A stretch of DNA of 32,000 bases, taken from NCBI RefSeq assembly GCF_000970085.1, contig NZ_CP009506.1:2315186-2347185 (forward strand), read 5' to 3'. Numbering within the stretch: position 1 is the first letter of the stretch; every line of letters begins with the position of its first letter. Shown here in pieces: positions 3,279-28,930 of this stretch. The notes beneath the pieces are model-generated. The model made no database searches. It worked only from the letters and a program-made list of their open reading frames with translations, and was not told the DNA's origin. This DNA is from Methanosarcina siciliae T4/M. Lineage in GTDB: Archaea > Halobacteriota > Methanosarcinia > Methanosarcinales > Methanosarcinaceae. Position numbers and translations under genes: made by a program.

Positions 3279-3377
3279 CAGTTTGCTTTCAAGAGCTAAA
3301 AAGTAGTATTCTTTAAAAGTAAATTCCCTCTTCGGGAATAAATTCTAATTTTCTCCGGATGGATTTTTATATATTGA

Positions 3378-3785: not shown

Positions 3786-3880
3786 AAGTTTGCAATATCG
3801 GTTTTTATGGTGAGCTTCGTCCGCTCAGGAGGGAGATGCTCTGTTAATATTTTTGTTCTCAGGAAGCTGGGGAAAAGAAG

Positions 3881-5362: not shown

Positions 5363-5399
5363 ATGGTTTATTCTATGTCCTTTGTGGTTTATATAATTT

Positions 5400-13550: not shown

Positions 13551-14555
13551 TCACTCTAAATTCGCAAATTTAAGCAGCCCAAAGGAACCAAGTTCAATCT
13601 TGTTAATTTTTTCTTCAAAGCAAGTACCCGGAACAAACGCAACCCCATTTGAACTCAAATACCTTCCAAAACCCTTTTTCAGATCGTACATTCTTCCTAC
13701 AAGTGGCTCAAGCTCACCTCTATATTTTATAGATTTCTCAGAGTCCAGTAACAGATGGCCGAATATAGGAACTCCTTTATTACCATTATCTTTGTTGAAA
13801 ATCAAACGATCTTCAGCGCTTTCAAGAAACCAGTCAAAAACAGGGGTACGCTCAATCTTTTTCACTTCAGTTATTCTCAATTCCAATTTCCCGAATCCAT
13901 ATCTAAGATCTCCCCCAACATGGATTTCATTTAAAGCTTCAAACAACTTTATTGAGGTATTCTCATACCCAAGTTCTATCTCTTCAAATTTTTCGCTGTT
14001 TTTTACAGAACATTTTTCAGAAATGTCTTCTTTCACAAAAAGATACCCTTTCCAATAAACCTGCATAACTCCACAATTTATTTTATCCAAAGTTTTGCAA
14101 TTTACCTTGTTCAAGATATATTCGGTCTCATGCAAACTTTCATCCATTGCCGAGTTCCTGTTTCCTACTGTTGCTGTGGAAACAAAAGAGCTAATGAAAG
14201 TGGATTCAAATTCTCTTTCGGAACACTTGCCATATTTTAAGCCTTCTTGCGTAAAGATTGGATTAAATGTATGTTGAATGTTCCCATTTTCTTGGTCTGT
14301 AATCTCTGGAAAGAAATACGTATTTTTTACATATCTTTCAATACATTTCCCAACCTCTTCGTAAACTTTGGGATTGTATTTTATTCCTTCGTCAATTAAT
14401 TTTCTTGCCGCGTTTGCGGTTAGAGCGCCCCACATTGTTTTACCAGGGATATACCTCCGGGCTTGCTGAATAAATCCTATTTTTCGACTGCCGATGAAGA
14501 TAGGAGATTTTGCTTTAAATCTTATCTCAAAGCATGTATAACCCATAGTTCTCAC
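13551..14555 (-). CDS. cmr3: Type III RAMP subunit Cmr3 (Cas5 group)
   Basis: The 334-aa ORF is the last effector gene and overlaps the cmr5 stop by 4 bp. It has a RAMP-like N-terminus (FEIRFKAKSPIFIGS...IPGKTMWGALTANAARKL) and a C-terminal glycine loop (HVGGDLRYGFGKLEL). Its position matches cmr3 in the III-C gene order. Confidence 0.65.
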   Translation of the reverse strand: MRTMGYTCFEIRFKAKSPIFIGSRKIGFIQQARRYIPGKTMWGALTANAARKLIDEGIKYNPKVYEEVGKCIERYVKNTYFFPEITDQENGNIQHTFNPIFTQEGLKYGKCSEREFESTFISSFVSTATVGNRNSAMDESLHETEYILNKVNCKTLDKINCGVMQVYWKGYLFVKEDISEKCSVKNSEKFEEIELGYENTSIKLFEALNEIHVGGDLRYGFGKLELRITEVKKIERTPVFDWFLESAEDRLIFNKDNGNKGVPIFGHLLLDSEKSIKYRGELEPLVGRMYDLKKGFGRYLSSNGVAFVPGTCFEEKINKIELGSFGLLKFANLE

Positions 14556-14998
14556 TCTCTCTTTTCCTCATCAGCATTTTCTTCCTCTTCCGAATTCCCT
14601 CTTTCTCCTGCATTTAGAGATTTTGCACGATAACGTGCATAAATAAAGGTTTGTTCAAGAACTTGCTTTGCGAAAAGCAATTTTCTTATATCAGTTGAAA
14701 GATTGATGATTTTTCCTTCTTCACTTCCCCCAACGCCGGATTCAATTTCTATATTACACTCTTCCAGAATCTTCACTACATCGATTCTGTTATTTCGATT
14801 CCCGTTTTTGTTTGAAGCTTTTAAATATAACCATAGAGCGTACACCCCATTTGATGACAGAACTCCTAATGATTTATTTATGAAAGATTCTATCTCTTTA
14901 GGTTTCATCCCTTCCTTTGAACCTTCAGGTTTCATTAATTTATCAACAATATCGAAACCGCTTTTTGCAGCGATAAAATCAATATTATTTTGAGCCAT
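14552..14998 (-). CDS. cmr5: Type III small subunit Cmr5 (Cas11 group)
   Basis: A ~149-aa protein is predicted from the internal ATG (MAQNNIDFIAAKSG...). The longer ORF to 15094 would overlap cmr4 extensively. The sequence looks all-helical (LGVLSSNGVYALWLYLKA) with an acidic tail. It sits between cmr4 and cmr3. Confidence 0.6.
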   Translation of the reverse strand: MAQNNIDFIAAKSGFDIVDKLMKPEGSKEGMKPKEIESFINKSLGVLSSNGVYALWLYLKASNKNGNRNNRIDVVKILEECNIEIESGVGGSEEGKIINLSTDIRKLLFAKQVLEQTFIYARYRAKSLNAGERGNSEEEENADEEKRE

Positions 14999-15983
14999 TT
15001 TCTCCCACTTCCTCAATCGTAACTCTTCCGAAACCTCTTGTGACCATCCCACCGATACCAAGAGTCTCAAAGTAGCAGAACCCACCTTTAACAATTGATT
15101 TTACATCGAGAAGCGAGATCAGGGTGTTACTTTTCCCTTCCTTTGAGCTGTTCTCACTCTTTTTGCCATATCCAAAATAATCAGGATCGTTTATACCCAG
15201 TTCAAACCAGAGTATAGTGCTCCTCGGGATGGCTTCACTGGTAAAAAGGGCACCATCCTTTCCTGCACCAGTTACTGGATCAATAGATACTGAAGTTCTT
15301 ACCTCAAGGTTAGAATTTATAATCTGGGAGATTAATGAATCAGGTACGATTACAATTCTGCTGGAGAGCAATTTATTTTTCTTTGAACCGAGGGATGCAA
15401 GATGATCAAATGATGGCAATTCTTTTTCATCTTCAATTGGAAGATTGAGCCACCCAAGATTCAGGCTTGATTCCCCTGAGAACTCAGAGCCAACCACTAT
15501 AAAGCTATTCGAAGGCTTGTTTTTTGTCTCTAATTGAATTCCAAAATCTTCTAAAATCATGGGAGAAGTTATCCATGCAGGCCCAATCCTTGTACTAACT
15601 GGGAATAAAAGGATGTGAGCGTCGCTAAAGTAAACAAGCCCCTGTGAGCTTCCTCTATCATCATTCTTTGAGAAACCAAAGGATCTACAGATAATGCATT
15701 TTCCACAGTGACCTTTTTTATTATTTCCAGGTGATACATCATTGTCTTGTCCTGCACAAGTAATTTTTACCTTATATTCTTGATCTTCTTTCTGATCCTC
15801 TATTTCTTTATATGTAGCATAAGTCCTTGCAGTCCCTGCAATGCTGCTTCCGGGAATTTTTGGAAGATTGGTTGCTGGCTCTCTCACTATAGTATTATCT
15901 ACACGGCCTATCTGGTAGCCCCCGGTGCCGATGTGTATCGGATCAAGCGTAAACATAAAGTATTTACTCATTTTTATCACCAT
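14985..15983 (-). CDS. cmr4: Type III backbone RAMP subunit Cmr4 (Cas7 group)
   Basis: The N-terminus FTLDPIHIGTGGYQIGRVDNTIVREPATNLPKIPGSSIAGTARTY carries the Cmr4/Csm3 signature, including the candidate catalytic Asp. Also present are HCGKCIICRSFG, VYFSDAHILLFPV and a C-terminal GIGGMVTRGFG loop. The start could be the second Met (MSKYF, 15971). Confidence 0.85.
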   Translation of the reverse strand: MVIKMSKYFMFTLDPIHIGTGGYQIGRVDNTIVREPATNLPKIPGSSIAGTARTYATYKEIEDQKEDQEYKVKITCAGQDNDVSPGNNKKGHCGKCIICRSFGFSKNDDRGSSQGLVYFSDAHILLFPVSTRIGPAWITSPMILEDFGIQLETKNKPSNSFIVVGSEFSGESSLNLGWLNLPIEDEKELPSFDHLASLGSKKNKLLSSRIVIVPDSLISQIINSNLEVRTSVSIDPVTGAGKDGALFTSEAIPRSTILWFELGINDPDYFGYGKKSENSSKEGKSNTLISLLDVKSIVKGGFCYFETLGIGGMVTRGFGRVTIEEVGENGSK

Positions 15984-18900
15984 TTGGCTTCAATTTTAGT
16001 ATAGAGTTGTAAAACTCCAGAATATCAAAAATCGTTTTGTCGAGACAAACCTTCTTAAGCAGCTCTTTTCCCTCTTTATCTAAAGAATTCCACCACTTAC
16101 GAGTTCCAACATTTATCAAAATGTTTTCAATTTGTTTTTCGAGAGTTTCATAGTATTCAGTTTTATTTTTCTCTTTACAGTCTTTCCAATCCATATGGAG
16201 TTTCACAAGGTTTTCTTGTATGTTTTTCAGTTGTGAAGTTGTCATGTATTGTGTATTGAACAAGTTCCATACCTTTTCAAAGACTGACGAGAACTCTTCA
16301 AGAAGGTAAGGCTTTGAACCTTTAAGCGAACTTTTATCAATTCTCTTATGATCACTATCATAACTAATTTCCAATCTTCGGGCCGTGGTATCTAAAAATT
16401 CGAAATCGAAATAATTGGGATAAAGCTTTACACAATCTCCCTGGTCTAAATCGGACCCGTTGATTAGAAATTCCTTTTCATTCTCTATAAATGTTTTAAA
16501 AAAGCTCTTTTTTTTCTGTGCTTTATCTTCAGAGGTCTTAAGAAGGAAGTTAAAATAATATTTTGCCTGCTCATCTAAGCATTTATTCAATTGAATTTCT
16601 TTCTTCCTAATTCCCTGGTTATCAACTTCCAGATTGTCAACTTCCAGATTAACTATAGGAGAGTCTTTTGAAAAATTACTTACTGAAAAATCCATAAATT
16701 CAACGTCTTCAAAACCGTTAAGCATTCTTCTAGATGCATTTACAGCGGCATAAAGAGCTGTTTTTGAATCAAAAAAGACAACACCTAAGTTTAGAGGTAG
16801 TCTCCCTGCAACATTTCCCATTTCTAATGAATATTTTGCGTGAATTTCAGATATTATTTTTGGAACACTGTTTGCAGGCACTATAAATTGAAACGTAACT
16901 GGAGATAACAAAACTTCAAGGAAAGGATTGTAATAACTCCCATAAAAAACATCATTGATTATATATCTTTCAAATTTATCTGGTTTTGTTCCTTCAAGTT
17001 CGATTTCAATTTCATCCCCAATATATTTTTTTAACTTGTCTGTCGTATCATCAAACAAGCCCTTTAATTCAGGTATGTCTAAATTTTGGGTAGTGATGAA
17101 TTTTTCTCCATCGAAATACATTACAATGCTCAATTTCTTGAATTTTGCTACGTATGTGCCACGTAATAGACCTTTTGTATCTTTTAAAGTGATATTTAGG
17201 CGCTTAAATCGAATCTTCGATGAGGTTTCAATATCTTTGTAATCATGGGCAGTGGGTATGTAAATGTAGTAATTTTCATTATTCTTTAAAAAGTCACTGG
17301 TTTCCTTCCAGAAGGTTTCAGTAGATGTCCAAATCCGCCTCAATCTTGAAGGAGATGGATGTTTCCTGAAAATAGTTAGTAACAGACGTTCTGTCGCTTT
17401 TTCACAACTGGAACCATCCTTCCAATTGTTTATTTTAGCATCCCAAAGTGGATTTCTATCTACCACTAAATTTTCATAGAACTGGTGGGAATTCATTTCA
17501 CGTTGGTAAGACTCTCCAGCAATCTCTTCTAAACATTTTGGCTTTCCTTTATTTATTTTCAGTTCTTGCCTCAAGCAGTCACTCAACGAGTTCCAATTAT
17601 CGTATGATTCTAAGTTTTGAGTTGTCTGGGAAAAAACAGTATTTAGGAGTTCTCCATTAAGCCACTTACTTAGATTGAACCTTCCTGTTACGATTGCTAC
17701 TTTTCCATTTGAATCTGCAATTTCATTAATCCAAATTGTGGGGTACTTTTTATCGGAGAAATTATTAGGTAACCAATCTTTTATTCGGCTTTCTCCCCTA
17801 TTCAAACAACACTTACAAACTTCCTGATGTTCACATTTCGGATGAACTTTACATACAGGGCAAATATCAACCTGATATTCTTTATTGCCTCCCCCAGCTA
17901 TACATTCATGATATCTTGTACAGGTATTTTTGCAAAAACTACGTTTTATTCTTCCATTATTAATACATTGATCATTACTCTTGCAAACATCACAAGAACT
18001 TTTTGAAACCTGGGCATCTTGAACATCGATGGTCAAAACTTGATCCCATTTTTCTTTCCATTCAGGGACTTCTTCGTGAAGCTGAAAATTACCTCTTGCT
18101 TCGGTTAAAAGATTTGTAAGTAAGACTAGAGAACGAGAAGATTCACTTATGGATATATATGGTATAACTTCCCCATCAGACTTTTTATTTACTCTACACA
18201 GTATTTCTTCTTTTATCAATTTCTCTAGAGAATCCCGGCCTATATCAGGACCAACAAAATAGATACCACTTTCATCTCTGTAGATTTCATTTCCAATTGG
18301 AAATTCTTCTTCTATATACGTTTTTATTTCTTGATCAATATCCTCAGTTAGTTTTCTGTATGCTACAATATCAACCAACTTGTGTGCCTTTTCTACCAGA
18401 CCAAGTTTATCGTATTGCACCCCTATAATAACCCACTTTAAATCTTTTAGATTAGTCCATTCCCCATTATGTATCATATTTGCAATGGCTGATTTGTAAA
18501 GACTTGCAACAGAATAAGAATGATCCCATAGAGTAACATCATTTCCACTTCGCCTGGTATCTCCAAGGGCTTTTAGGAATTCTTTTTTCAACAGTTCAAT
18601 TATTTTTTTTCTCTGCATCACTATATTATCTGGTTTTTCAGAAATTTCTTCTAAGTAGGTAGACAATTCATTGCAAAGATTTTCTCTGCTCGGCTTTAAA
18701 TCTTCAATGTTAATTTTCTTTTCATGCCCAAAAGAAGTAGATATTTTTGTACACTCAATTGATTGCTTTCCAATATTTTGAAGAATACCTTTGTCTACTC
18801 CAGAATCAAGACGATCAATATTTTTTAATAACTCGATAAGTCTTTTATCAGTTTTTTTTCCATGATGTTCTGAAATTATTTCTTTAGGCCCCGCCAATTT

Positions 18901-19266
18901 TTCGGAGAATATAGGTTTAATTGTGTTAGTCCTAATATTTTTATTTATAATGTCCTTGAATACTTCTTTAGAAATTATTTCTTTAAAACTTGAACTCAAA
19001 AATTCACTATAATCAAATTTATCGTTGTTTTCGCTAAAAATATTATAATGCTTAAATTTGCAATAGATACTGTAATTTTTTTTTGAATCGAAGCATTCTT
19101 TACTTTGTTCAACTATGAACTCTTTACTTAATTTCCCTAAATCGTGCAACAGAGAGTAAATTTCAGACAGAAGAATGAAATCGGCATTTTCTTTAATGCG
19201 CTCTTGTCCATTCATTAATACGCCCCTGTTCTCTTCAAGAACATTCAAATTCCGGTCTTTGTTCAC
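15964..19266 (-). CDS. cas10: Cas10 (Cmr2-like) large subunit: HD motif present, canonical GGDD cyclase motif absent
   Basis: The 1100-aa ORF has an HD region LLHDLGK (res 39-45), with EHHGK and RLDSGVDK downstream. TLWDHSYSVASLY is present, as is a Cys-rich Zn cluster at res 425-487. HPSPSRLRRIW precedes the second palm domain. Where GGDD is expected the sequence reads LLSPVTFQFIVPANS (res 786-800), followed by the conserved RLPLNLGVVFFDSKTALYAAVNASRRML. No GGDD, GGDE or SGDD occurs anywhere in the ORF. Confidence 0.9.
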   Translation of the reverse strand: MNKDRNLNVLEENRGVLMNGQERIKENADFILLSEIYSLLHDLGKLSKEFIVEQSKECFDSKKNYSIYCKFKHYNIFSENNDKFDYSEFLSSSFKEIISKEVFKDIINKNIRTNTIKPIFSEKLAGPKEIISEHHGKKTDKRLIELLKNIDRLDSGVDKGILQNIGKQSIECTKISTSFGHEKKINIEDLKPSRENLCNELSTYLEEISEKPDNIVMQRKKIIELLKKEFLKALGDTRRSGNDVTLWDHSYSVASLYKSAIANMIHNGEWTNLKDLKWVIIGVQYDKLGLVEKAHKLVDIVAYRKLTEDIDQEIKTYIEEEFPIGNEIYRDESGIYFVGPDIGRDSLEKLIKEEILCRVNKKSDGEVIPYISISESSRSLVLLTNLLTEARGNFQLHEEVPEWKEKWDQVLTIDVQDAQVSKSSCDVCKSNDQCINNGRIKRSFCKNTCTRYHECIAGGGNKEYQVDICPVCKVHPKCEHQEVCKCCLNRGESRIKDWLPNNFSDKKYPTIWINEIADSNGKVAIVTGRFNLSKWLNGELLNTVFSQTTQNLESYDNWNSLSDCLRQELKINKGKPKCLEEIAGESYQREMNSHQFYENLVVDRNPLWDAKINNWKDGSSCEKATERLLLTIFRKHPSPSRLRRIWTSTETFWKETSDFLKNNENYYIYIPTAHDYKDIETSSKIRFKRLNITLKDTKGLLRGTYVAKFKKLSIVMYFDGEKFITTQNLDIPELKGLFDDTTDKLKKYIGDEIEIELEGTKPDKFERYIINDVFYGSYYNPFLEVLLSPVTFQFIVPANSVPKIISEIHAKYSLEMGNVAGRLPLNLGVVFFDSKTALYAAVNASRRMLNGFEDVEFMDFSVSNFSKDSPIVNLEVDNLEVDNQGIRKKEIQLNKCLDEQAKYYFNFLLKTSEDKAQKKKSFFKTFIENEKEFLINGSDLDQGDCVKLYPNYFDFEFLDTTARRLEISYDSDHKRIDKSSLKGSKPYLLEEFSSVFEKVWNLFNTQYMTTSQLKNIQENLVKLHMDWKDCKEKNKTEYYETLEKQIENILINVGTRKWWNSLDKEGKELLKKVCLDKTIFDILEFYNSILKLKPNGDKNE

Positions 19267-20447
19267 TCCCTCACCTTCTTGGAATCCTGCAGTCTTTGGC
19301 TGATATGTTTAGCAATATCAGTTAGTTCTTCAAAAGTGCTAAAAGACCAAGTTGGCCATTCAATAGAGGTTTTAGCTTCAGACTGAAGATGTTTCTGCCA
19401 GCCAGATGCATGGAATTTATACCATCGTTTGAACATTTTAAACTCTTTTAGAGGCCCTCCGCCACTTTGAGCTAATTTTTCACCCGTAATATTAGTTATC
19501 GGTTTACCCTCTGCACCTTTAAACGAATCTTTTAGAGTTCCATCTTCATTAAGATATTTTAAAAATATCTTTTCTGGTGGCTTCATATCTTCATGTATAG
19601 AAACAGTAACACATTTTGTTTTCAGGGTAATTTTCCCGTCCATGAGTTTATCTTCGACAATCCCAAATCCACTTGCCGTTTTGGCACCGAAACCATGGAC
19701 CAAGAACATATCTTTAAGTCCTTTAGAAATGAGGTATATATCGAAGGCAACGTTATCATTAGCATGTGATTTTTCTTCATCAGAAACACAAAAAGGAACA
19801 TAAAGCAAACTGAATGAGCCGGTACTTTTGGCAGGTACAACTTCATAATAAATAGGATTTATACCTGCTTTTCTTTCTCTATCATGTGGATTTATGACTT
19901 CAAGTTTGATATTGTCAAAATATGTAGGAAATAGAATTAAAAATCCTTTTTTGTTATCATTCTCTTTGTCAGATACGTATCCAAATAACCGGTCAATAGA
20001 TCGAGACTTTAATTCGTCATGCTTTTCTTCATCATTACTTTTAACGATAGCATTTCTTAAGGTGCCAGCCCATCCGCTTGGGCGCACCATGGGAATCTTA
20101 AAAATGGATTCTTTACATATAGGATTGTCAATAATATAGAACTGTTCATCATCTTTACTGTAAAACGGTTTCTTAAGTTTGAATTTAAATTGGACAAAAA
20201 AGGAATTAACAGGAAGAATACTAATATTAATCATTGGCTGGCATAAATTTAAGTCATGCAACAACTGGATTGCACTTTTCAACCTCAAATTACTATTGTC
20301 AATTTCATTTTTATAATCTTCTAATTTTTCTTTTTTATCCAATGAATATAGCTGAATTTTTGAATAATAATCTGATATATCATTTATTTCTGATGAATCT
20401 GAAAAATAGCTATAAAAATCATACGAATGCGTATTAGACATCCCCAT
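19263..20447 (-). CDS. cmr6: Type III RAMP subunit Cmr6 (Cas7 group)
   Basis: The 394-aa ORF contains RPSGWAGTLRNAI, DRLFGYVSD...KGFLILFPTYF, INPHDRE and a C-terminal HGFGAKTASGFG loop. It has a 4-bp overlap with cas10. Confidence 0.75.
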   Translation of the reverse strand: MGMSNTHSYDFYSYFSDSSEINDISDYYSKIQLYSLDKKEKLEDYKNEIDNSNLRLKSAIQLLHDLNLCQPMINISILPVNSFFVQFKFKLKKPFYSKDDEQFYIIDNPICKESIFKIPMVRPSGWAGTLRNAIVKSNDEEKHDELKSRSIDRLFGYVSDKENDNKKGFLILFPTYFDNIKLEVINPHDRERKAGINPIYYEVVPAKSTGSFSLLYVPFCVSDEEKSHANDNVAFDIYLISKGLKDMFLVHGFGAKTASGFGIVEDKLMDGKITLKTKCVTVSIHEDMKPPEKIFLKYLNEDGTLKDSFKGAEGKPITNITGEKLAQSGGGPLKEFKMFKRWYKFHASGWQKHLQSEAKTSIEWPTWSFSTFEELTDIAKHISQRLQDSKKVRE

Positions 20448-21417
20448 TCCTCCCGTTTTGAATATTTAGAAGAATGTCTTTTCCTGTAATTATATTGTTA
20501 ATATCCTGCTTAATTCTGGTTTGTAACTTTCTTTTGATAATATCAAGTTCTTGTTCATTTCGCACGTAACCAAAAACTTTATTTCCGATCTTAAACGAAA
20601 ATATTTTTTTACTCGAACCTGGTATCATACTTGAAGCACGATTTCCTCGAAGAAATTCTAAAAATTCGTCTCCATAAATAGAAACATTTCCTTTATTGTC
20701 CAATCCAAATATTTCATTTATCTTCAACCGATCCAAGTATTCCCCTTTTATTATCCAGTAATACCTAAAATCAAACCAGTTTTTATTGTTAATTTTTCCA
20801 CAATTTTCTGTAATAGTCTTAATCCATTTTTGAGTTTTATTATAATCAGATTTGCTTGCCCAATCAGTATTTACTAAATTGACTTCGATTAAACCGTAAT
20901 CCTTCCCAACTGGACTTCCCTGAGGCTTACGAGTTGTTCTACCACCGAATGCTCCGTAATTTTCAATTATTTGCAATGTTTGAAATAATAGCCACTTCTC
21001 GCTATCTGAAATCTTAAAAATCTCATAAAATTCAATTTCTAAAATCCCACTATAGCCATCATCATTCATTCTTTGACTAAAAGTACCCCCTAAATCGTTT
21101 GCTACAATCTTAAATCGCCGTTTCCACCCGGTACATCCAAATAACCTGCAGGCAGGGCAAACGTTTTTAAGTCCAATTTCCAGTGCTTCATCTACATTTT
21201 GTCCTTTTTCCAATGCTTTCTCATAGTCCTTTGTGTTGAACTCACATCCCCCATTTGAAGGATCACAAGCATATCCTCCCATACCTCTCACTATTGCTTC
21301 ATACCACCACCGCATGCTCCCGATGATGCTGGTCTCTTTTATTGTTGTACATTTTTGATTTGCATCTCCGGTCCAGATGGGAGTCAAAGTCTTAAATTTG
21401 ATTTCAGTTTTAACCAT
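20434..21417 (-). CDS. cmr1: Type III RAMP subunit Cmr1 (Cas7 group)
   Basis: The 327-aa ORF contains LTPIWTGD, GSMRWWYEAIVRG, CPACRLFGCTGWKRRFKI and GAFGGRTTRKPQG, which are hallmarks of Cmr1-type RAMPs. Confidence 0.8.
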   Translation of the reverse strand: MVKTEIKFKTLTPIWTGDANQKCTTIKETSIIGSMRWWYEAIVRGMGGYACDPSNGGCEFNTKDYEKALEKGQNVDEALEIGLKNVCPACRLFGCTGWKRRFKIVANDLGGTFSQRMNDDGYSGILEIEFYEIFKISDSEKWLLFQTLQIIENYGAFGGRTTRKPQGSPVGKDYGLIEVNLVNTDWASKSDYNKTQKWIKTITENCGKINNKNWFDFRYYWIIKGEYLDRLKINEIFGLDNKGNVSIYGDEFLEFLRGNRASSMIPGSSKKIFSFKIGNKVFGYVRNEQELDIIKRKLQTRIKQDINNIITGKDILLNIQNGRNGDV

Positions 21418-21438
21418 GTATTATTCCCTTGTACAAGC

Positions 21439-22182
21439 TTAATTACGAGATAATGTATTGGCATTCCAAACAGTACTTTTTAGAAAATCAGAGGATTTTT
21501 GGCAATTATACCCCCTTATTTTCCTCACAGTCCCAAACCCCTTCGCAACCCCTTTTCCTATTCCCATAAAATCCGGAATCAAAAAATTAGCTATAAAACC
21601 GCCTGTAAAAGAAGTAAAATCCATATTTTTGTACTTTGAACGCCTGAGTTCCACATCGACATCACATTTTATGGTATCGGGAACCGTATATCCAAAAGTC
21701 TTTGACATCGAGAGTAAATTTCCTGCCAGGGTCCTTCTTAGCATTTCCTTTTGCTCTTCGGGGTTTTTGGTCTCAAGAAATTTCTCCTCATTTTCTTTAT
21801 TAAGGGCCATCCAGGGAGTTAGAAATTCATAAAAGTAAATGCTTTTTGTAAGCCCAAAGTCCTGTTTTTTAAGCCTCAAAGAGCGTTCCGTGATCTCAAA
21901 GTCTTCGTGAGGAAGGGTTACCGTATCAAATTTATCAAATAAACCTTTCAAGATTTCTGCGCCTTCGTTTACCCCAACTACCAGAGGTGTCCTGTCAAGA
22001 ACTTTGTACTGCACTAAAGGGTAGCGGTAGTAAAACCTGTCAGTATTATGGTTGTGGAGAAGGTCATATTCATTGAATTTTGATGCAAAAAACCCACGGA
22101 TCTGATTTGCATCTCCCCTGAACTCCTCTTCGCCTTCAAAAGTCATTTCAAGGGTTTTGAGCTTAATGTTCCCAGGATTCAT
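21439..22182 (-). CDS. cas6: Cas6 CRISPR repeat endoribonuclease
   Basis: The 247-aa ORF contains RYPLVQYK and a C-terminal glycine-rich loop, GIGKGVAKGFGTV. It is the first gene of the effector string. Confidence 0.75.
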   Translation of the reverse strand: MNPGNIKLKTLEMTFEGEEEFRGDANQIRGFFASKFNEYDLLHNHNTDRFYYRYPLVQYKVLDRTPLVVGVNEGAEILKGLFDKFDTVTLPHEDFEITERSLRLKKQDFGLTKSIYFYEFLTPWMALNKENEEKFLETKNPEEQKEMLRRTLAGNLLSMSKTFGYTVPDTIKCDVDVELRRSKYKNMDFTSFTGGFIANFLIPDFMGIGKGVAKGFGTVRKIRGYNCQKSSDFLKSTVWNANTLSRN

Positions 22183-22304
22183 AATATCTATAAAGAATTT
22201 TTTACAAATACATTTTTTAAATTTTATTGATTTTTGTTATAAGATAAATAACTTATCATATTAATCAGATAACATTTCTAAATAATTATAAACATGATAT
22301 ATAT

Positions 22305-23519
22305 TTAAATAAAATCTTGAATTTTTTTATTAAAACATTGTTCAATTCTTTCAAGCCCGGAAGCATAATCCGTGTGCCTGTAGTAATTTACCCAAGGGTC
22401 TACGACATTATAAATATTTTTTATTACAATATTAAGAGCCTGATACTCGTTTTCAGAGTCAAATTTGTTCTTTTTTCCTTTAAATTCAATATCTATGCTC
22501 TCAATACTCTCTATTATCTTCTCAATTGACCCATCGGTGGGTAATACATTTATTCTGTTTCCCAAGCCGTTTTCATCCAGAATTTCCTGAAAATAGAACC
22601 CCACGAATTCAAACCCATTAGCTGCTGCCCCCACATAGGTTTTTTCTCTGTTTAATTCGAGCCCAAGTTCAGCCATAATAGTCTCAGCCCTCTCAGGCTT
22701 AATCCACTCCTTTGAAAGGACTACAAAATCATCTGCAAAACGTACGAGGTGTTCAATTGATTCCCCTTCAACATTCTTGAGCCCGATTTCTGCCCAGTGG
22801 TTGTCGAACTGGTCCAGGTAGAAGTTTACAAGAAGCGGAGAGATTATCCCGCCTTGGAGCAACCCTTTATTTGAGTTTTTTCCGGAACCGCTTCCAAAAG
22901 AACCTTTTTTGAGCCAGCTCTCGACCAGGGAAAGGATCAGCTCATCTCCAATCCTTGTTTTAATGATCTTCATGAGCTTATCATGGGGGATGTTGTCAAA
23001 ACAGCCCTCGATATCCCCCTTCAGGTAATGGGTGTTTCCGGCTTCGAGCCATTTGTAGACTTCAAGACTGGCAAGTTTTGCAGACCTGTACGCCCGGTAG
23101 CCGTAGGAACAATTTTCAAAATCAGCTTCAAAAATAGGTTCAAGGACGAGTTTTACAGCTCCCTGGACAAGCCGGTCTCTCAGAGTCAGGATTCCAAGCT
23201 GTCTTGTTTCTCCGTTTCGTTTTGGAATCTCAACCCTTTTTACTGCATCGGCAATATATTTGCCATCTTCAAGCTCTTTCTTTACGACACGGATGAATTT
23301 GTCGACCCCGGAAGCTTCTACCTGCTGGACAGTTAGAGAGTCAAAACCAGTGCCTTTTGTGTTCTTGTTCAGGTTTTTCCAGGCTGTATAGAGGATCTCG
23401 TCTTTCAAAAGCAGTTTTTTAAGCTTCCGGAACCGTTTTTGCGGGTTCCTCTTCGCTTTGTTATACAGTTTCAGTTGAATTTCGGCTAGAGTCTGGTTCT
23501 GTATATCAGGTACCTCCAT
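22305..23519 (-). CDS. Standalone group-II-intron-like reverse transcriptase (RT plus maturase/thumb-like X region), CRISPR-associated
   Basis: The 404-aa ORF shows RT motifs in order: RVEIPKRNGETRQLGILTLRDRLVQ (RT1-2), YGYR (RT3), KGDIEGCFDNIPH (RT4), LLQGGIISPLL, and VRFADDFVV (RT5 catalytic FADD). The C-terminal DPWVNYYRH resembles the maturase X-domain motif. There is no endonuclease domain and no Cas1 fusion. Confidence 0.9.
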   Translation of the reverse strand: MEVPDIQNQTLAEIQLKLYNKAKRNPQKRFRKLKKLLLKDEILYTAWKNLNKNTKGTGFDSLTVQQVEASGVDKFIRVVKKELEDGKYIADAVKRVEIPKRNGETRQLGILTLRDRLVQGAVKLVLEPIFEADFENCSYGYRAYRSAKLASLEVYKWLEAGNTHYLKGDIEGCFDNIPHDKLMKIIKTRIGDELILSLVESWLKKGSFGSGSGKNSNKGLLQGGIISPLLVNFYLDQFDNHWAEIGLKNVEGESIEHLVRFADDFVVLSKEWIKPERAETIMAELGLELNREKTYVGAAANGFEFVGFYFQEILDENGLGNRINVLPTDGSIEKIIESIESIDIEFKGKKNKFDSENEYQALNIVIKNIYNVVDPWVNYYRHTDYASGLERIEQCFNKKIQDFI

Positions 23520-23566
23520 AAATGGTTCTTAATTTCCAGTCGTCTACAGAGCCTGATATACTTAGC

Positions 23567-23594
23567 CGCGAAGAATTCGGGTTTTTTCCGAATT
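23567..23594 (-). promoter_or_regulatory. Palindrome-containing 5' module upstream of the RT gene (shared with cas1)
   Basis: Read on the minus strand, the region is AATTCGG-AAAAAAC-CCGAATTCTTCGCG. The ATG follows 47 nt after CGCG, with TCTGTAG at +17..23. The cas1 upstream region has the same arrangement. Confidence 0.6.
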
Positions 23595-23658
23595 AAAGGA
23601 CTCGATACTTTTTCGTGATTTCAGTTTTTATCCACGGAGGTGGAGTTTATGGATATTA

Positions 23659-25477
23659 GTTTCAATCCTTGTTTTAGTGGCTGTTACCGTTTTTCATCAG
23701 GGTACCAAAAGGAGAGATTCCCAGAAATGGGGGTTTCAATCCTTGTTTTAGTGGCTGTTACCGTTTTTCTGACATCACGAAACTTGGATCACTGCTCAAA
23801 ATTTATAAAAAGCTGTACAAAAAGGATGTATTCGTTTCAATCCTTGTTTTAGTGGCTGTTGCTGTTTTAGTGAAGAGTGCATAAATTCTATAATTATTGT
23901 GAAAGTTTCAATCCTTGTTTTAGTGGCTGTTGCTGTTTTAGTTGAATGAACAGTTGAGGATAATAGCGATGTTTATAAGTTTCAATCCTTGTTTTAGTGG
24001 CTGTTGCTGTTTTAGCATTGAAGTATCAAGTGTTTGTGCATATTTTCTAGTTTCAATCCTTGTTTTAGTGGCTGTTGCTGTTTTAGTTGAGGTTGAAGAT
24101 CTGACTGTGAAGGAGGGCTATATGTTTCAATCCTTGTTTTAGTGGCTGTTGCTGTTTTAGTCGGAAACAAAATGGATTTAATTGGCCAAGAAGAGTTTCA
24201 ATCCTTGTTTTAGTGGCTGTTGCTGTTTTAGTTGTCATCAGAAAATCTTGATGAACAGCTTGATAGTTTCAATCCTTGTTTTAGTGGCTGTTGCTGTTTT
24301 AGCTGTAATAAAGATTTCTGCGAGAGAGATAGATACTGAGTTTCAATCCTTGTTTTAGTGGCTGTTGCTGTTTTAGATCGGTGATGGAAAGGATTGCTAG
24401 AATTGATAATAAGGTTTCAATCCTTGTTTTAGTGGCTGTTGCTGTTTTAGCTGGAAGATTGATCATCACCCAGAAGAATCGAGAGATGTTTCAATCCTTG
24501 TTTTAGTGGCTGTTGCTGTTTTAGTAAGGGGCACACGGTTGTTCCTGTCGAAGCAGAAAAACGTTTCAATCCTTGTTTTAGTGGCTGTTGCTGTTTTAGG
24601 AATAATTACGCAAGAAATGGAAGATGGTTACAAGAGTTTCAATCCTTGTTTTAGTGGCTGTTGCTGTTTTAGCGAGAGATTGAAACAAGCAGAGGAAGAC
24701 AATAAATTTGTTTCAATCCTTGTTTTAGTGGCTGTTGCTGTTTTAGAAATTATCTTCGGTTTTAAAGCTAAAAATAAATGAAGTTTCAATCCTTGTTTTA
24801 GTGGCTGTTGCTGTTTTAGCGTGTATATCTCAAGGAAGAAGGAATGGAAAACCCAGTTTCAATCCTTGTTTTAGTGGCTGTTGCTGTTTTAGTTTTGACC
24901 AAAGGACTAGCTCATGTAGTTATATTTAGTTTCAATCCTTGTTTTAGTGGCTGTTGCTGTTTTAGAATAAAAGTCTAACCGTGATTGATATCATTGATAA
25001 AGGTTTCAATCCTTGTTTTAGTGGCTGTTGCTGTTTTAGCAGAGACACTTGTGTCTAGGGGAATGAGAGTGTCAGGTTTCAATCCTTGTTTTAGTGGCTG
25101 TTGCTGTTTTAGGTAAAAACAAAAACGGAGTGCAAAAAATGGAAAAGTTTCAATCCTTGTTTTAGTGGCTGTTGCTGTTTTAGTGGCAGATATAGATCCC
25201 AAATTTTTCGAGAAAACAAGTTTCAATCCTTGTTTTAGTGGCTGTTGCTGTTTTAGAATCAAGAGATAAGAGGAATAACCGGATCTATACTGGTTTCAAT
25301 CCTTGTTTTAGTGGCTGTTGCTGTTTTAGGTGGAAAACACTGGTTTTTTAAAAAATACAAAAAGAGGTTTCAATCCTTGTTTTAGTGGCTGTTGCTGTTT
25401 TAGTCCCATATCTGGCACATGGAAAAGTTTTCCCAGAAGAGTTTCAATCCTTGTTTTAGTGGCTGTTGCTGTTTTAG
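23659..25477 (-). CRISPR. CRISPR array 2: 25 repeats of 37 bp, 24 spacers (34-38 bp plus one of 63 bp)
   Basis: The repeat is the same as in array 1. Repeats start at 23659, 23733 (both the ...ACCGTTTTTC variant), 23833, 23904, 23979, 24050, 24124, 24195, 24266, 24340, 24414, 24488, 24563, 24636, 24710, 24783, 24856, 24928, 25003, 25076, 25147, 25220, 25293, 25367 and 25441. The leader is on the right, so the array is transcribed on the minus strand. Confidence 0.97.
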
Positions 25478-25730
25478 AGGGTCGTTTTCCCTTATTTACA
25501 GCAAATTATTAAATAATTCCAAATCTAAAAAACAATAGCAAGCAAATTATTTTTTGCTTAAACTGTATAATATTTAAAATTTGCTTACTTCCATTTTTGT
25601 TAACTAAATTTGTCCATCGACAATTAGCTAAGGAGTATATAAGGATGGATACCATATAAACTTTTGTATTTTCGACTGCTTGGCAGCGAAATTATTTTTT
25701 TGACAATGTACATATCTGTACACTTCTTTA
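25478..25730 (-). promoter_or_regulatory. CRISPR leader of array 2 with candidate TATA box
   Basis: This region is homologous to 10638-10890. TATATAA at 25636-25642 lies 159 bp from the first repeat, the same distance as in leader 1. Confidence 0.7.
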
Positions 25731-25964
25731 AAATCATTTGTAAAGTAGGGTATCCGGGATACATTTATAATTCTAATACGAAGTTCATAGCGCCGCCTCA
25801 TGGTGGATTTTTCATCCGGGCTCCTCAGAAAAATCCAAATTTTCTTTAGAAATACTTCAAAATAGTTTTTTATGATGTTCTATGTAGATGTTGTTTTTTT
25901 GAAAATTCATGGGTCAAATTGAGAAAAAAGCGTGATTCTTCAGGAAAACGGGGATACAAACTTC

Positions 25965-25995
25965 AAGAATTCGGATAAAGACCGAATTCTTCGCG
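25965..25995 (+). promoter_or_regulatory. Perfect 10-bp-stem palindrome upstream of cas1 (candidate operator)
   Basis: AAGAATTCGG-ATAAAGA-CCGAATTCTT is followed by CGCG. The ATG of cas1 lies 49 nt after CGCG, with TCTGTAG at +17..23. The 14-mer CCGAATTCTTCGCG recurs as its reverse complement at 23567-23580, upstream of the RT gene. Confidence 0.65.
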
Positions 25996-26044
25996 AAATA
26001 ATACTTATAGATCTGTAGGCTTAAATGAAAAGTGAACTTCTATT

Positions 26045-27094
26045 ATGGTTTTCAAATTCAGGAGGGAATTCTGGATTAGGTTGATTGTTGACGAATACGG
26101 GACTTATATACATAAGAAGAGCAACCGGTTTATTTTCGTTGATAAGACTGAAAAGCTGCTCAAAAAAGGGTTTTCAGCGGATAAAGTGTCTCAGATCCTT
26201 ATTTACAAAGGAGCTGCAGTTACTGCTGATGCGATAGAGCTTGCGGTTAAAAAAGGAATAGACATAGTTTATTTTGACCGGCTGGGGAAGCCTTTTGCAA
26301 GGACTTATTCCTGCGAACAGGAAAACTCTGCAACCGTACAGCGCTACCAGGCAAGGGCTTATGATGACGGAAAAGGGATTTTTCTTATGGGCTCCATGAT
26401 CGGAGCTAAAATAAGGAACCAGGGATATCTGCTGAAAAGCCTGGCAAAAAAGAGAAATAATGAGCGCTTAGTGGGACAGGCGGAAAGGATCATGTCCCTG
26501 TCCGAAAAAATAAAGGAGCGGGCTGAAGAGTGGGGATATATTGAAGAAGCAAGGGAGAGCCTGTTCGGGATTGAAGGCGAGGCTTCAAGGATTTACTTTC
26601 AGGCCCTCTCAAATGTCCTTCCCGAAGCCGTGTACTCGGGGACGAGAACAAAAAGGCCGCCTGGAGACCTTTTTAATGCAATGCTCAGTTACGGGTACGG
26701 AATTCTCTATACCGAAGTGGAAAAAGCCTGCGTGCTCTCAGGCCTCAACCCCTACATGGGTTTCCAGCATACCGACCTTCCGGGAAAGCCGTCTCTTATC
26801 CTTGACCTGATTGAAGAATTCCGGCAGCCGGTTGTGGACAGGGCTGTGATAAGCCTTATCTCAAAAAAGCTTGTAACAGAAAAAGACCTCAAGTCGGTTG
26901 AAGGCGGTTTTTACCTGAACAGGGCCGGAAGGCGCAAAACTCTAGAAGCAGTCTCCGAAAGGCTTGCAAAAACTGTAAATTACAGGGGTTTCCGGCACTC
27001 ATTTTCCATCTTAATCCTGAAGCAGACAAGGGCGGTTGCAAAATTTCTTACCGGAGAGAGCAGCGGATATGCTCCTTTTGTATACTGGCGATAA
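26045..27094 (+). CDS. cas1: Cas1 integrase
   Basis: The 349-aa ORF contains GIDIVYFDRLGKPFARTY, EGEASRIYFQAL, PPGDLFNAMLSYGYGILY and GFQHTDLPGKPSLILDLIEEFRQPVVDR. These are canonical Cas1 motifs, including the His and Asp/Glu catalytic positions. Confidence 0.95.
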   Translation: MVFKFRREFWIRLIVDEYGTYIHKKSNRFIFVDKTEKLLKKGFSADKVSQILIYKGAAVTADAIELAVKKGIDIVYFDRLGKPFARTYSCEQENSATVQRYQARAYDDGKGIFLMGSMIGAKIRNQGYLLKSLAKKRNNERLVGQAERIMSLSEKIKERAEEWGYIEEARESLFGIEGEASRIYFQALSNVLPEAVYSGTRTKRPPGDLFNAMLSYGYGILYTEVEKACVLSGLNPYMGFQHTDLPGKPSLILDLIEEFRQPVVDRAVISLISKKLVTEKDLKSVEGGFYLNRAGRRKTLEAVSERLAKTVNYRGFRHSFSILILKQTRAVAKFLTGESSGYAPFVYWR

Positions 27095-27148: not shown

Positions 27149-27454
27149 ATGTTTTTGTGGCTCGTCTACGACATAACCGATAACAACCTACGGAACAGGG
27201 TCTCGGAAAAATGCCTGGACTTCGGGCTCAGCAGGTTCCAGAAAAGCGTTTTTTTCGGCGAGCTTGACCCTGAAAAGATGAACGGACTTGCAGACGAAAT
27301 CGAGCAGCTACTTGACCATGAAGAGAGGACTGAAGAAGATTCCGTGCTCCTGTCTCCGGTTTGCATGGCCTGCCTGGGAAAAAGGCTCGTAATCGGGAAG
27401 GACTTCAACCCTGAAACATACGCAGAAAAAGAATGCTTATTTATTGCTGAATGA
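27149..27454 (+). CDS. cas2: Cas2
   Basis: The 101-aa ORF starts MFLWLVYDITDNNLRNRVSEKCLDFGLSRFQKSVFFGEL, a ferredoxin-fold Cas2 signature with the conserved N-terminal Asp. It lies directly after cas1. Confidence 0.9.
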   Translation: MFLWLVYDITDNNLRNRVSEKCLDFGLSRFQKSVFFGELDPEKMNGLADEIEQLLDHEERTEEDSVLLSPVCMACLGKRLVIGKDFNPETYAEKECLFIAE

Positions 27455-27571: not shown

Positions 27572-28342
27572 ATGGCAGTAATGATTGCAACCCTCGGAGG
27601 GTCGGGAGATATCGTAAAACTGGGAGTCCGCCTGATGGAAAACGTAGATGAGGTCCTGCTGGTTGCCGGAAAGCCTTTATCCGAGCTCTATCCGGAATCC
27701 GAGATAAAAGCAGGTGCGGAAATCGTGAATCCCCCGGAAAAAGCTTCTGAGCTGGAAAGTCTCCTTGGGGGTTTCGGGATCAGAGTCAAAACCTTCAAAG
27801 TAGACCCCTTTAATTTCAAAGAATGCCTCATAACGATAATCGAATTGATCAATGCCCAGCCCGAAGGAGTCGAAGTTGTTTTAAACGTTACAGGCGGCAC
27901 GAAAATCCTCTCACTTGCAGCCTTGAGTGCTGCAGGCATGTGCCGCTGCAAAGCCTTTGTAATCCAGGAAAAAGGAAACGGTAGCATCAAACTTGAACTC
28001 CCCATGCCTGATCCCGGTTATTTCGAAAAAATCGGAAAGCAGGGAAAAAAGACCCTCTCCTACCTGATGCAGGAAGAAAAGAAGCTAAAAGACCCGACCG
28101 AGCAGTGCAGCGATGAAAAACTCAGGCCCTTCATAAGCAAAAACATAGCAAACCACCTCGGAGTAACGCCTCAGACCCTTAATCCAATCCTCAAGTCCCT
28201 GGAATTTTCCGGGCTTCTCTCCGGCAGGAAAGGCTCGATAAAAAGAGGGGAGCCTGCAGGCGGAAAAAGTGGAGTGAAAATCTGGAGGCTGACCGACGAA
28301 GGAAAAATCTACGCTGCTTATTTCAGTAAAGAAAATCGGTAG
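27572..28342 (+). CDS. csa3: Csa3-like CRISPR-associated regulator (N-terminal CARF domain plus C-terminal winged HTH)
   Basis: The 256-aa ORF has a Rossmann-like N-terminus (VMIATLGGSGDIV) and the CARF signature LNVTGGTKILSLAA. The C-terminus looks like a wHTH (ISKNIANHLGVTPQTLNPILKSLEFSGLLSGRKG...WRLTDEGK). Confidence 0.8.
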   Translation: MAVMIATLGGSGDIVKLGVRLMENVDEVLLVAGKPLSELYPESEIKAGAEIVNPPEKASELESLLGGFGIRVKTFKVDPFNFKECLITIIELINAQPEGVEVVLNVTGGTKILSLAALSAAGMCRCKAFVIQEKGNGSIKLELPMPDPGYFEKIGKQGKKTLSYLMQEEKKLKDPTEQCSDEKLRPFISKNIANHLGVTPQTLNPILKSLEFSGLLSGRKGSIKRGEPAGGKSGVKIWRLTDEGKIYAAYFSKENR

Positions 28343-28893: not shown

Positions 28894-28930
28894 GTTTCAA
28901 TCCTTGTTTTAGTTGATCTTGTTTTTGAAT
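28894..28930. repeat. Solitary degenerate CRISPR repeat (third sequence variant)
   Basis: GTTTCAATCCTTGTTTTAGTTGATCTTGTTTTTGAAT matches the array repeat over its first 20 nt and then diverges. There is no neighbouring repeat within normal spacer distance. Confidence 0.7.

Follow-up and report, generated by a model that had tools for sequence, protein, structure and literature searches.

Does a CRISPR-associated reverse transcriptase (RT) need to be fused to Cas1 in order to record RNA? To our knowledge, the RT-Cas1 and Cas6-RT-Cas1 fusions (Marinomonas mediterranea MMB-1, type III-B; Vibrio vulnificus, type III-D; Thiomicrospira; PDB 7KFT) are the only CRISPR RTs with experimental RNA spacer capture. 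According to a review (PMC7694759), RNA-derived CRISPR memory has not been shown in archaea, no archaeal RNA virus is known, and the role of the RT in the archaeal clade is still hypothetical. The question is raised by a locus of Methanosarcina siciliae T4/M, in which an RT gene stands alone between a CRISPR array and cas6b. Loci of this type are a practical test bed for it, since Methanosarcina is genetically tractable, as the literature already notes. The features of the window, i.e. the whole stretch of 32,000 nucleotides that was analysed, are listed in Table 1.

Table 1. Features of the M. siciliae T4/M window (positions counted from its first nucleotide)
Feature	Position	Strand	Remarks
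CRISPR array 1 and leader	9262-10860	-	array 9262-10637, leader 10638-10860
Type III-C effector operon	13551-21417	-	profiles, PADLOC
cmr3	13551-14555	-	III-C operon
cmr5	14552-15094	-	III-C operon
cmr4	14985-15983	-	III-C operon
cas10c/csx11	15964-19266	-	HD motif at residue 41
cmr6	19263-20447	-	III-C operon
cmr1	20434-21417	-	III-C operon
cas6b	21439-22182	-	profiles, PADLOC
RT, stand-alone, group-II-intron-derived (MSSIT_1873)	22305-23519	-	404 aa, RT0-7 and diverged X/thumb domain
Conserved RT 5' region	23520-23600	-	palindrome, TATA-like box, CTGTAG
CRISPR array 2	23659-25477	-	transcribed on the minus strand
Leader of array 2	25478-25700	-	87% identical to the array 1 leader
cas1 5' region, same module	25968-26044	+	AATTCGG-N7-CCGAATTCTTCGCG, TATA-like box, CTGTAG
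cas1, stand-alone	26045-27094	+	unfused to RT
cas2	27149-27454	+	
CARF and HTH regulator, Csa3-like type	27572-28342	+	candidate binder of the shared palindrome

The RT ORF opens with an ATG on the minus strand and, as the initial annotation had described, carries an FADD motif (residues 261-264) and a maturase-like WVNYYRH motif (residues 376-382); its product is 100% identical to MSSIT_1873 of M. siciliae T4/M. In profile searches it matched Pfam RVT_1 (3.2e-30, residues 98-309), the group II RT/maturase family TIGR04416 group_II_RT_mat (2.4e-87, 293.3 bits for a cut-off of 300) and, weakly, Pfam GIIM (17.2 bits for a cut-off of 23). The CRISPR-RT profile PDLC01136 gave 1.2e-93, and the RT part of PADLOC Cas1_IIIb gave 8e-43, compared to the above value for TIGR04416. 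The closest solved relative is LtrA (2.7e-40), and Cas6-RT-Cas1 (PDB 7KFT) was matched with 1e-27. Neither a DNA-binding domain nor an endonuclease domain was identified by the profiles. As the ATG codon is conserved in M. siciliae only, four orthologues having AAG or ACG at that position, while the next 40 codons are under purifying selection, the true translation start may lie a few codons away from the annotated one and is uncertain to that extent.

The RT descends from a mobile group II intron, the ribozyme of which has been lost. Mobile group II introns, represented by LtrA of Ll.LtrB and by introns of Thermoplasmata and Nitrososphaerota (L005, L007/8, L092, L093), have RT0-7 plus X and a YADD-type active site and are the evolutionary source of the RT. 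However, true introns have D1-D4 and DV-DVI RNA around the ORF and are present in several copies, whereas the window RT has no ribozyme flanks and a weakened maturase signal. No match to the Rfam group II RNA families (Intron_gpII, group-II-D1D4) was obtained in the window at the gathering threshold, no intron RNA was found from 21300 to 26100 at E<=10, and the scan of eight related CRISPR-linked loci was likewise negative, whereas D1-D4 and/or DV-DVI were detected beside the non-CRISPR homologues L005, L007/8, L092 and L093/95, used as positive controls. The nearest non-CRISPR homologues of the RT are such true introns, with 35-39% identity. The flanks were remeasured and are as the initial annotation had given them: upstream, array 2 ends with a variant repeat at a distance of 139 bp, and downstream, 122 bp of AT-rich sequence precede cas6b. 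The RT clade, comprising 57 sequences of 42-100% identity, was separated from the 51 nearest intron RTs with an NJ bootstrap of 100/100. Its catalytic DD is invariant (57/57), and dN/dS of the RT is 0.12-0.20 over a dS of ~1, which indicates at the sequence level that an intact polymerase active site is kept under purifying selection. The precomputed Pfam GIIM match is absent in most members of the clade and present in nearly all intron RTs.

These results contradict the view that a mobile group II intron landed beside the array by chance and is either still active or has recently decayed to a non-functional remnant. Although the RT falls just under the equivalog cut-off for group II RTs/maturases (293 vs 300 bits) and its nearest outgroup sequences are true introns, the failure to find ribozyme domains where the positive controls were detected, the shortness of the flanks, the purifying selection, the clade-wide weakening of the maturase-domain signal and the retention of the orthologous position in several species and genera make such an intron extremely improbable. 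The covariance models and the phylogenetic placement, both proposed in the initial annotation as checks, thus agree with its reading: the lack of intron RNA, the monophyly of the clade, the purifying selection and the conserved array-to-RT synteny support a group-II-like RT that is domesticated, not fused and part of a type III-C locus, rather than a mobile intron. Domestication of this kind is also known from G2L4 and other G2L RTs, which are group II intron RTs that have lost the ribozyme and gained a host function; they are not known to be CRISPR-linked, and G2L4 acts in DNA repair.

The core of this finding, including the non-fused configuration, has been known since 2017, as the family was published in that year as RT-CRISPR clade 1 (Toro, Martinez-Abarca, Gonzalez-Delgado 2017, Sci Rep, PMC5541045) and the orthologue of strain C2J (AKB36824.1/MSSAC_2234), 89% identical to the RT, is among its listed members. 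Clade 1 corresponds to branch 11 of Silas et al. 2017 (mBio, PMC5513706) and was also named lineage 4 (PMC6013744). In the accessible part of Toro 2017 (PMC5541045), both the C2J orthologue and that of M. horonobensis (MSHOH_1962, 78% identity) are listed, and T4/M itself was not found in the accessible part of the supplement, which the 85%-identity cut-off of that paper could explain. The RTs of clade 1/branch 11 occur in Methanosarcinaceae and are close relatives of those of group II introns; they lack intron RNA, are encoded apart from Cas1 and lie beside CRISPR arrays and type III loci (Cmr or Csm). The window RT clusters with the published members, has no intron RNA and has the same locus order, with no essential difference. 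The 2017 publications (PMC5541045, PMC5513706) also include the remark that the RT may not need to be fused to Cas1. What is added here is a palindromic element common to the RT and cas1, the strand polarity of the spacers, and relatives of 42-50% identity in MAGs with III-A loci.

The genes follow each other in the order array 2, RT, cas6b and III-C operon, with cas1-cas2 diverging beyond array 2. The coordinates and strands thus agree with the initial annotation in placing the RT and cas1 as separate genes on opposite sides of the array and on opposite strands. The RT lies on the transcribed strand of array 2, directly past the array trailer. Array 2 is composed of 23 standard repeats (23834-25477), followed by a 64-nt gap and two variant repeats (23733-23769 and 23659-23695) at the trailer end beside the RT. 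Its polarity, with the leader facing cas1 and the trailer facing the RT, is deduced from the identity between the leaders of the two arrays. Array 1 has its repeats in standard, variant and again standard blocks, and none of the spacers in the window recurred in arrays of other strains. The effector module is of type III-C, as had been proposed at the outset: Cas10c/Csx11 was matched by TIGR02682 Csx11 (2e-137) and PADLOC Cas10c (3e-156), no GGDD-like motif was found in it by pattern search, Cmr5 was labelled 'CAS-III-C' by PADLOC, and Cmr1, 3, 4 and 6 were also identified. A nSTAND3 NTPase and further defence-type genes share the island with the RT.

The initial annotation had also claimed that the RT and cas1 have a 5' control module in common. 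Upstream of the RT, the palindrome AATTCGG-N7-CCGAATT (23594-23574) is followed by CTTCGCG, a TATA-like GTATAT (~23561-23556) and CTGTAG (23549-23544), and six Methanosarcina genomes share this region at ~90% identity despite a dS of ~1. The cas1 gene is preceded by the same module with the same spacing to the ATG (49 nt, vs 47 nt for the RT). A search for TTCGR-N7-YCGAA-N1-2-HTTCG (H = A/C/T) returned 14 matches in 436 kb of CRISPR-linked sequence from 12 related sources, all of them just upstream of the RT (8) or cas1 (6), vs none in 2.19 Mb of control loci, which extends the claim to the whole clade. Co-transcription of the RT by read-through from array 2, suggested at the same time, is possible in T4/M. 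However, since the RT has a conserved promoter-like region of its own, and T5-T7 tracts separate the array from this region in five of the six orthologous loci, independent and co-regulated transcription appears to be the better reading.

The RT and cas1-cas2 thus probably form one co-regulated adaptation unit, with the adjacent CARF-HTH (Csa3-like) protein as a candidate controller. A precedent is the Csa3a system of Sulfolobus islandicus, in which, according to the accessible part of the article (PMC4333418), a CARF-HTH regulator encoded beside the adaptation genes activates them via a binding site in their promoter, as proposed here for cas1 and the RT. That system differs from the Methanosarcina locus in being crenarchaeal, of type I-A and, as far as is known, without an RT.

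All inspected members of the RT clade with enough flanking sequence lie in type III loci. The array-to-RT arrangement with divergent cas1-cas2-CARF genes beyond the array is conserved, and the effector varies between III-C, III-D and III-A; cas1 is separate and divergent also in L001, L080, L081 and L085. The Cas1 and RT identities drop in parallel (98/89, 89/78, 85/74, 56/51 and 48/42%). An RT acting as an independent defence or repair enzyme (abortive-infection/DRT-like or G2L4-like), sharing the island without a mechanistic link to CRISPR, would be in line with its weak profile similarity to Drt3a, Drt2, AbiA and several UG-class RTs and with the presence of the nSTAND3 NTPase and other defence-type genes. 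It is nevertheless quite improbable, as the DRT/Abi matches lie 40-250 bits under their cut-offs, as opposed to 1.2e-93 for PDLC01136, the cis element is exclusive to the RT and cas1, and the same position relative to the array trailer and cas genes is kept in all sufficiently flanked loci over 50-100% RT identity and three effector subtypes, with three genes between the array and the RT in L087 (42% identity).

The conserved neighbourhood of cas6b has to be weighed separately. Together with the type III effector or Cas6b, the RT might serve expression or interference instead of adaptation, for instance by copying crRNA or target RNA into cDNA or by requiring a Cas6 partner, in which case it would lie close to cas1 only by coincidence. 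Mohr et al. reportedly found in 2018 that the Cas6 domain of Cas6-RT-Cas1 fusions is required for RT-dependent acquisition, which we count in favour of such a role. The RT adjoins cas6b in the window and in L001-L004, L018, L080, L082 and L089, and this adjacency persists in L082, in which only a 49-aa remnant of the neighbouring cas1 is left, and in L089, in which no cas1 was found within 10 kb; similarly, Methanosarcina RT loci were described as 'RT next to cas6, no cas1' (Silas 2017, PMC5513706). However, in L081, L085 and L087 the RT is followed by a gene other than cas6; cas6b lies at the distal end of the effector operon in the first two and was not detected in the examined part of the third. 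Moreover, neither cas6 nor the effector genes are preceded by the palindromic element common to the RT and cas1, and an exchange of the effector cassette does not separate the RT from the array and the cas1 module. We therefore regard a function restricted to expression or interference as rather unlikely.

Our preferred reading, which we hold with somewhat more confidence than doubt, is that of a domesticated archaeal CRISPR-associated RT of clade 1/branch 11 that is co-regulated with cas1-cas2 and captures RNA spacers in trans. We infer that the free RT most likely works in trans with Cas1-Cas2. Its templates for new DNA spacers would be RNA protospacers or RNA 3' ends that have been ligated into the repeat, the III-C effector would use the resulting crRNAs, antisense to transcripts, and the CARF-HTH (Csa3-like) regulator would control the RT and cas1-cas2 together. 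The RT-Cas1 fusions of bacteria, in which a group-II-like RT is likewise joined to a type III adaptation module, act in this way and are the model for this mechanism. Indirect hints of RNA capture at the Methanosarcina loci are the cis element common to the RT and cas1, the strand-polarised spacers and one rRNA-derived spacer in the C2J array. The RT described here differs from them in being a separate gene, across the array from cas1 and on the other strand, and in having no Cas1 domain, and by sequence, intron RTs are nearer to it than the fused ones are (see LtrA and 7KFT above). Clade 1 has an origin independent of the fused RTs in both 2017 phylogenies (PMC5541045, PMC5513706). The window Cas1 was also considered as a possible member of the RT-fused Cas1 lineage. 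This was rejected, as none of its best 120 relatives is fused to an RT, and it thus shows no sign of belonging to an RT-adapted lineage.

Finally, the composition of the spacers was compared. In crRNA sense, the RT-linked arrays contain 159 pyrimidine-rich vs 23 purine-rich spacers (~87%), whereas the I-B-like arrays of the same loci contain 78 and 72 (~50:50); this strand bias is a compositional proxy, and selection alone could produce it. A more specific, albeit unlikely, proposal is that the RT and cas1 form a regulon with a palindromic operator, conserved throughout the clade and read by the adjacent CARF-HTH protein, and that the RT confers directional RNA-templated spacer capture. Directional capture would explain why ~87% of the RT-linked spacers have crRNAs antisense to purine-rich (coding-like) strands, with no such bias in the I-B-like arrays of the same genomes. 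Should this hold, RT-dependent acquisition would be described for the first time in archaea, and also for the first time with an unfused RT. The strand would be chosen at acquisition, in contrast to M. mediterranea, whose system is blind to orientation: spacers of both orientations are acquired by MMB-1 (PMC5576922), whereas the RT-linked arrays described here look strongly polarised. In practical terms, the locus offers a defined, mutable cis element tying the RT to cas1, a candidate regulator gene next to cas2, and a compositional signature of strand-polarised spacers that could be checked against Methanosarcina viromes once these become available.

The array 2 spacers yielded no protospacer match in phages and plasmids (blastn, word size 11), nor did three of them in IMG/VR. 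Together with the loss of cas1 in L082/L089 and the unfused state of the Cas1 relatives, the lack of identified protospacers is a point against a role in adaptation. When 176 spacers of RT-linked arrays were concatenated and compared to phages, a single match was obtained, to 'ssRNA phage SRR7976300_9'. This candidate for an RNA-phage-targeting spacer was rejected, since the match falls in the 3' tail of the record (3263-4433), a fragment of archaeal 23S rRNA (LSU_rRNA_archaea, 637 bits), and the record is thus a chimeric assembly. The exact 37-mer of the spacer and a 22-mer taken from it were absent from metagenome contigs. The spacer itself comes from the C2J array, outside the window, and is rRNA-like, in the rRNA sense.

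The RT gene was found to encode a protein 100% identical to MSSIT_1873 of M. siciliae T4/M. Pfam searches identified an RVT_1 domain (3.2e-30, residues 98-309) and a weak GIIM maturase-domain match (17.2 bits for a cut-off of 23), and the NCBIfam equivalog for group II intron RT/maturases gave 293.3 bits, for a cut-off of 300. The FADD and WVNYYRH motifs reported in the initial annotation were located at residues 261-264 and 376-382, respectively, and the flanks towards array 2 and cas6b are as short as it had stated, so that its description of the ORF is accurate. The solved structures nearest by sequence are those of the intron RTs LtrA (2.7e-40) and GsI-IIC (1.5e-33), the Cas6-RT-Cas1 structure 7KFT being farther away (1e-27).

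The RT had been taken not to belong to a mobile intron, and the covariance-model search of its flanks for intron domains agrees with this. No group II intron RNA was found with Rfam in the whole window at gathering thresholds, nor between positions 21300 and 26100 even at E<=10, and the same scan found no ribozyme domains in eight CRISPR-linked loci of relatives (L001, L002, L080 of M. siciliae C2J, L081, L082, L085, L087 of Methanosalsum, and L089). The scan is sensitive enough, since D1-D4 and/or DV-DVI were detected beside the nearest homologues without a CRISPR link, namely in Thermoplasmata (L005, 37% RT identity), at two copies within one Nitrososphaerota genome (L007/L008, 35%), in L092 (39%) and in L093/L095 (37%), the latter with the same protein on 13 contigs. 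The boundary is sharp: RTs of at least 42% identity are CRISPR-linked and lack a ribozyme, whereas those of 39% or less belong to real introns.

Phylogenetic placement, also suggested as a check, was performed by neighbour-joining with bootstrap on the 108 best full-length RT homologues. The 57 homologues with at least 42% identity formed a monophyletic clade (bootstrap 100/100), whose members share an essentially invariant catalytic DD and RT4 motif (QGG..SP). A comparison of six orthologues from Methanosarcina gave dN/dS of 0.12-0.20 at dS of ~0.3-1.1. By these sequence criteria the RT family is functional and monophyletic; that the gene would be an intron remnant, whatever its likeness to intron RTs, is hardly credible.

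This family has been described before. Toro 2017 (PMC5541045) defined it as RT-CRISPR clade 1, found in Methanosarcinaceae hosts only, in which the RT is not joined to Cas1, lacks intron structure, branches off close to class F introns and is associated with effectors of the Cmr or Csm type; among its listed members are the orthologues from C2J and M. horonobensis. Independently, Silas 2017 (PMC5513706) arrived at this group as branch 11, 'mostly in Methanosarcina' and with the RT beside cas6, regarded its recruitment as independent and pointed out that Cas1 fusion may not be required. It was named lineage 4 by Toro 2018 (PMC6013744), and a 2020 review (PMC7694759) treated the RT function as hypothetical and proposed Methanosarcina as a model. 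The core finding is thus already known, the observation made in the initial annotation being confirmed and its interpretation supported. Our literature search found neither an experimental study of the clade nor a description of an RT/cas1 cis element, and the added value lies in a predicted, conserved RT/cas1 operator, in polarised spacers and in a clear experimental route.

The gene map places RT and cas1, as had been claimed, in separate genes on opposite strands and opposite sides of array 2. Downstream of the RT, on the minus strand, come cas6b, cmr1, cmr6, cas10c/csx11, cmr4, cmr5, cmr3, the nSTAND3 NTPase gene and array 1, and the plus strand past array 2 carries cas1, cas2 and a CARF-HTH (Csa3-like) gene. 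The effector is of type III-C (TIGR02682 Csx11, 2e-137; PADLOC Cas10c, 3e-156; Cmr5 labelled III-C); in its Cas10c the HD motif is located at residue 41, and a GGDD-like cyclase motif was not found. The repeats of arrays 1 and 2 end in ATTGAAAC on the minus strand, where the Rfam CRISPR-DR7 matches lie as well, the variant repeats are located at the low-coordinate end, and homologous leaders (87% identity over 223 nt) are found at the high-coordinate ends. These four observations show that both arrays are transcribed on the minus strand, and the RT therefore lies just past the array 2 trailer, on the transcribed strand.

Features of the RT locus and its surroundings in the window
Feature	Position	Strand	Remark
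AAA-ATPase gene	3881-5362		
DDE transposase gene	7311-8972	+	just past array 1 trailer
Array 1	9262-10637		
nSTAND3 NTPase gene	11025-13481	-	last gene of effector operon
cas6b	21439-22182	-	begins 122 AT-rich bp downstream of RT
RT ORF	22305-23519	-	404 aa
Array 2	23659-25477		
Last repeat of array 2, variant type	23659-23695		ends 139 bp upstream of RT ATG
Solitary CRISPR repeat ATTCAAAAACAAGATCAACTAAAACAAGGATTGAAAC	28894-28930	-	CRISPR-DR7, 43.5 bits

The two repeat variants, CTAAAACAGCAAC... and GAAAAACGGTAAC..., differ in their 5' 13 nt only (9262-10637 and 23659-23870). Array 1 is a mosaic, in which 6 standard repeats are followed by 7 of the variant type and again by 6 standard ones. 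Array 2 has at its RT-adjoining end a 64-nt gap and then a mini-array of two variant-type repeats, and in L002, too, the array repeats nearest the RT are of another type. The solitary repeat, downstream of the CARF-HTH gene and without neighbouring repeats, resembles the I-B-like repeat family of other Methanosarcina loci.

In the relatives' loci with enough flank, the RT directly follows an array that has the same orientation and repeats ending in GGATTGAAAC (L001, L002, L080, L081, L082, L085 and L089), the exception being L087 (42% RT identity), where three genes separate array and RT. Divergent cas1-cas2-CARF/HTH genes occupy the far side of the array in the window, L001, L080, L081 and L085; L082 retains only a 49-aa cas1 remnant, and cas1 was not found within 10 kb in L089. 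For Cas1 and RT, encoded on the same contigs, identity to the window declines in step (98/89, 89/78, 85/74, 56/51 and 48/42%), and the effector varies from III-C in the window to III-D with Csx19 (L081, L082 and L087) and III-A with Csm2 (L085). The RT hence travels with the array/adaptation module and not with any one effector. The main rival explanation, a role on the Cas6 or effector side, has the adjacent cas6b of the window in its favour and appears rather unlikely; the gene following the RT is not cas6 in L081, L085 and L087. Within M. siciliae, the C2J Cas10 is only 23% identical to that of the window, although it lies between a conserved cas6b and an nSTAND3 gene with 71% identity (L080 19669-21233), which suggests that the effector cassette has been exchanged between strains of this species.

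The 5' control module that the RT and cas1 were thought to share was recovered. Only two copies of the 14-mer CCGAATTCTTCGCG are present in the window, one upstream of the RT ATG at a distance of 47 nt and one upstream of the cas1 ATG at 49 nt. Each belongs to AATTCGG-N7-CCGAATT-CTTCGCG, after which come a TATA-like box and CTGTAG. The 80-nt stretch between the palindrome and the start of the RT is ~90% identical across six genomes, in which synonymous sites are near saturation and sequence further upstream diverges, and diverged modules of the same architecture precede RT and cas1 in L085 and RT in Methanosalsum (L087). A search with the degenerate pattern TTCGR-N7-YCGAA-N1-2-HTTCG (H = A, C or T) gave 14 matches in CRISPR-linked sequence (436 kb), always immediately upstream of RT (8) or cas1 (6), and none in unrelated loci (2.19 Mb). 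We read this module as a putative promoter with operator, placing both genes under common control. By analogy with Csa3a, which is reported to activate adaptation genes in Sulfolobus (PMC4333418), the CARF-HTH protein encoded beside cas2 is the obvious candidate regulator. The likeliest mechanism, which we favour with some reserve, would be that the RT acts in trans, assisting spacer capture, and is expressed under common control with cas1; an unrelated defence or repair enzyme, next to a module matched before RT and cas1 only, seems less probable still than a Cas6- or effector-side role.

Read-through from array 2 had been proposed for RT expression. It is possible in T4/M, and more plausible there than in the related loci, where no run of at least 4 T being found in T4/M between the last repeat and the RT module (23520-23658), but it is unlikely as the general mode, since a T5-T7 tract, an archaeal terminator-like signal, lies between the last repeat and the RT element in 5 of the 6 orthologous loci (L001, L002, L080, L081 and L082).

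Spacers of RT-adjacent arrays are pyrimidine-rich (T-rich) in crRNA orientation, with pyrimidine-rich to purine-rich ratios of 20:2 in array 2, 12:4 in array 1 and 159:23 in ten pooled RT-linked arrays (window, L001, L002, L080-L082, L085, L087 and L089; mean purine 0.395), compared to 78:72 (0.493) in I-B-like arrays of the same loci (repeat ATTCG.GAGCAAGATCC...; Fisher's exact test, 1e-12). In L002, where a single long array changes repeat type near the RT, the bias changes along with it (9:1 versus 65:49). As the sense strand of the window genes has a mean purine content of 0.555, the crRNAs look almost uniformly antisense to coding-like strands, and 0.395 is even below the 0.445 that spacers perfectly antisense to average host genes would have. 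This polarity, a purine proxy only, exceeds the published figure for type III arrays, a coding-strand average of 65% (PMC8482600). The bias could arise without any role of the RT, through selection for functional type III guides. No protospacers were found for array 2 among phages and plasmids (blastn), for three array 2 spacers in IMG/VR, or for the 176 RT-linked spacers among phages, for which the sole database match was an 'ssRNA phage' record.

This match, of a spacer from the RT-adjacent array of C2J (L080 9558-9594, outside the window), was rejected as an RNA-phage protospacer, the matched part being a chimeric archaeal 23S rRNA tail. The record (L097; NC_074146.1 / BK013716.1, 'ssRNA phage SRR7976300_9', Andihavirus) has a 3' tail (~3263-4433) that consists of a fragment of archaeal LSU rRNA (Rfam, 637 bits); it probably stems from chimeric assembly of a metatranscriptome and is able to give false host or spacer links. 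The spacer itself reproduces, in sense orientation, a conserved helix of archaeal 23S rRNA (LSU rRNA ~1500-1540), with 24 consecutive identical bases and 32/34 overall; it differs by an additional base and by a substitution that disrupts a helix pair, and its exact source was not found in metagenome contigs. A non-targeting spacer derived from rRNA is consistent with capture from abundant RNA, but a review describes a preference for rRNA and tRNA genes in type III systems without an RT as well (PMC9048733).

At the 5' end of the RT ORF (23502-23519, minus strand), the ATG is found in M. siciliae only. The matching codon is AAG or ACG in four orthologues (L001, L002, L081 and L082), which have in-frame stops 4-5 codons upstream of it, and the following 40 codons nevertheless show dN/dS of 0.05-0.2. 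An invariant Shine-Dalgarno-like GGAGGT lies directly 3' of this codon and 7 nt before a conserved Ile codon (ATA/ATC/ATT), an arrangement that could point to near-cognate initiation; the N-termini annotated for the orthologues vary, giving 352 to 412 aa. Elsewhere in the window, the AAA-ATPase gene lies between two tandem repeats of 34 nt whose units are related (...GGTTAGATAATTAACCACT...; 3173-3257 and 5399-5509).
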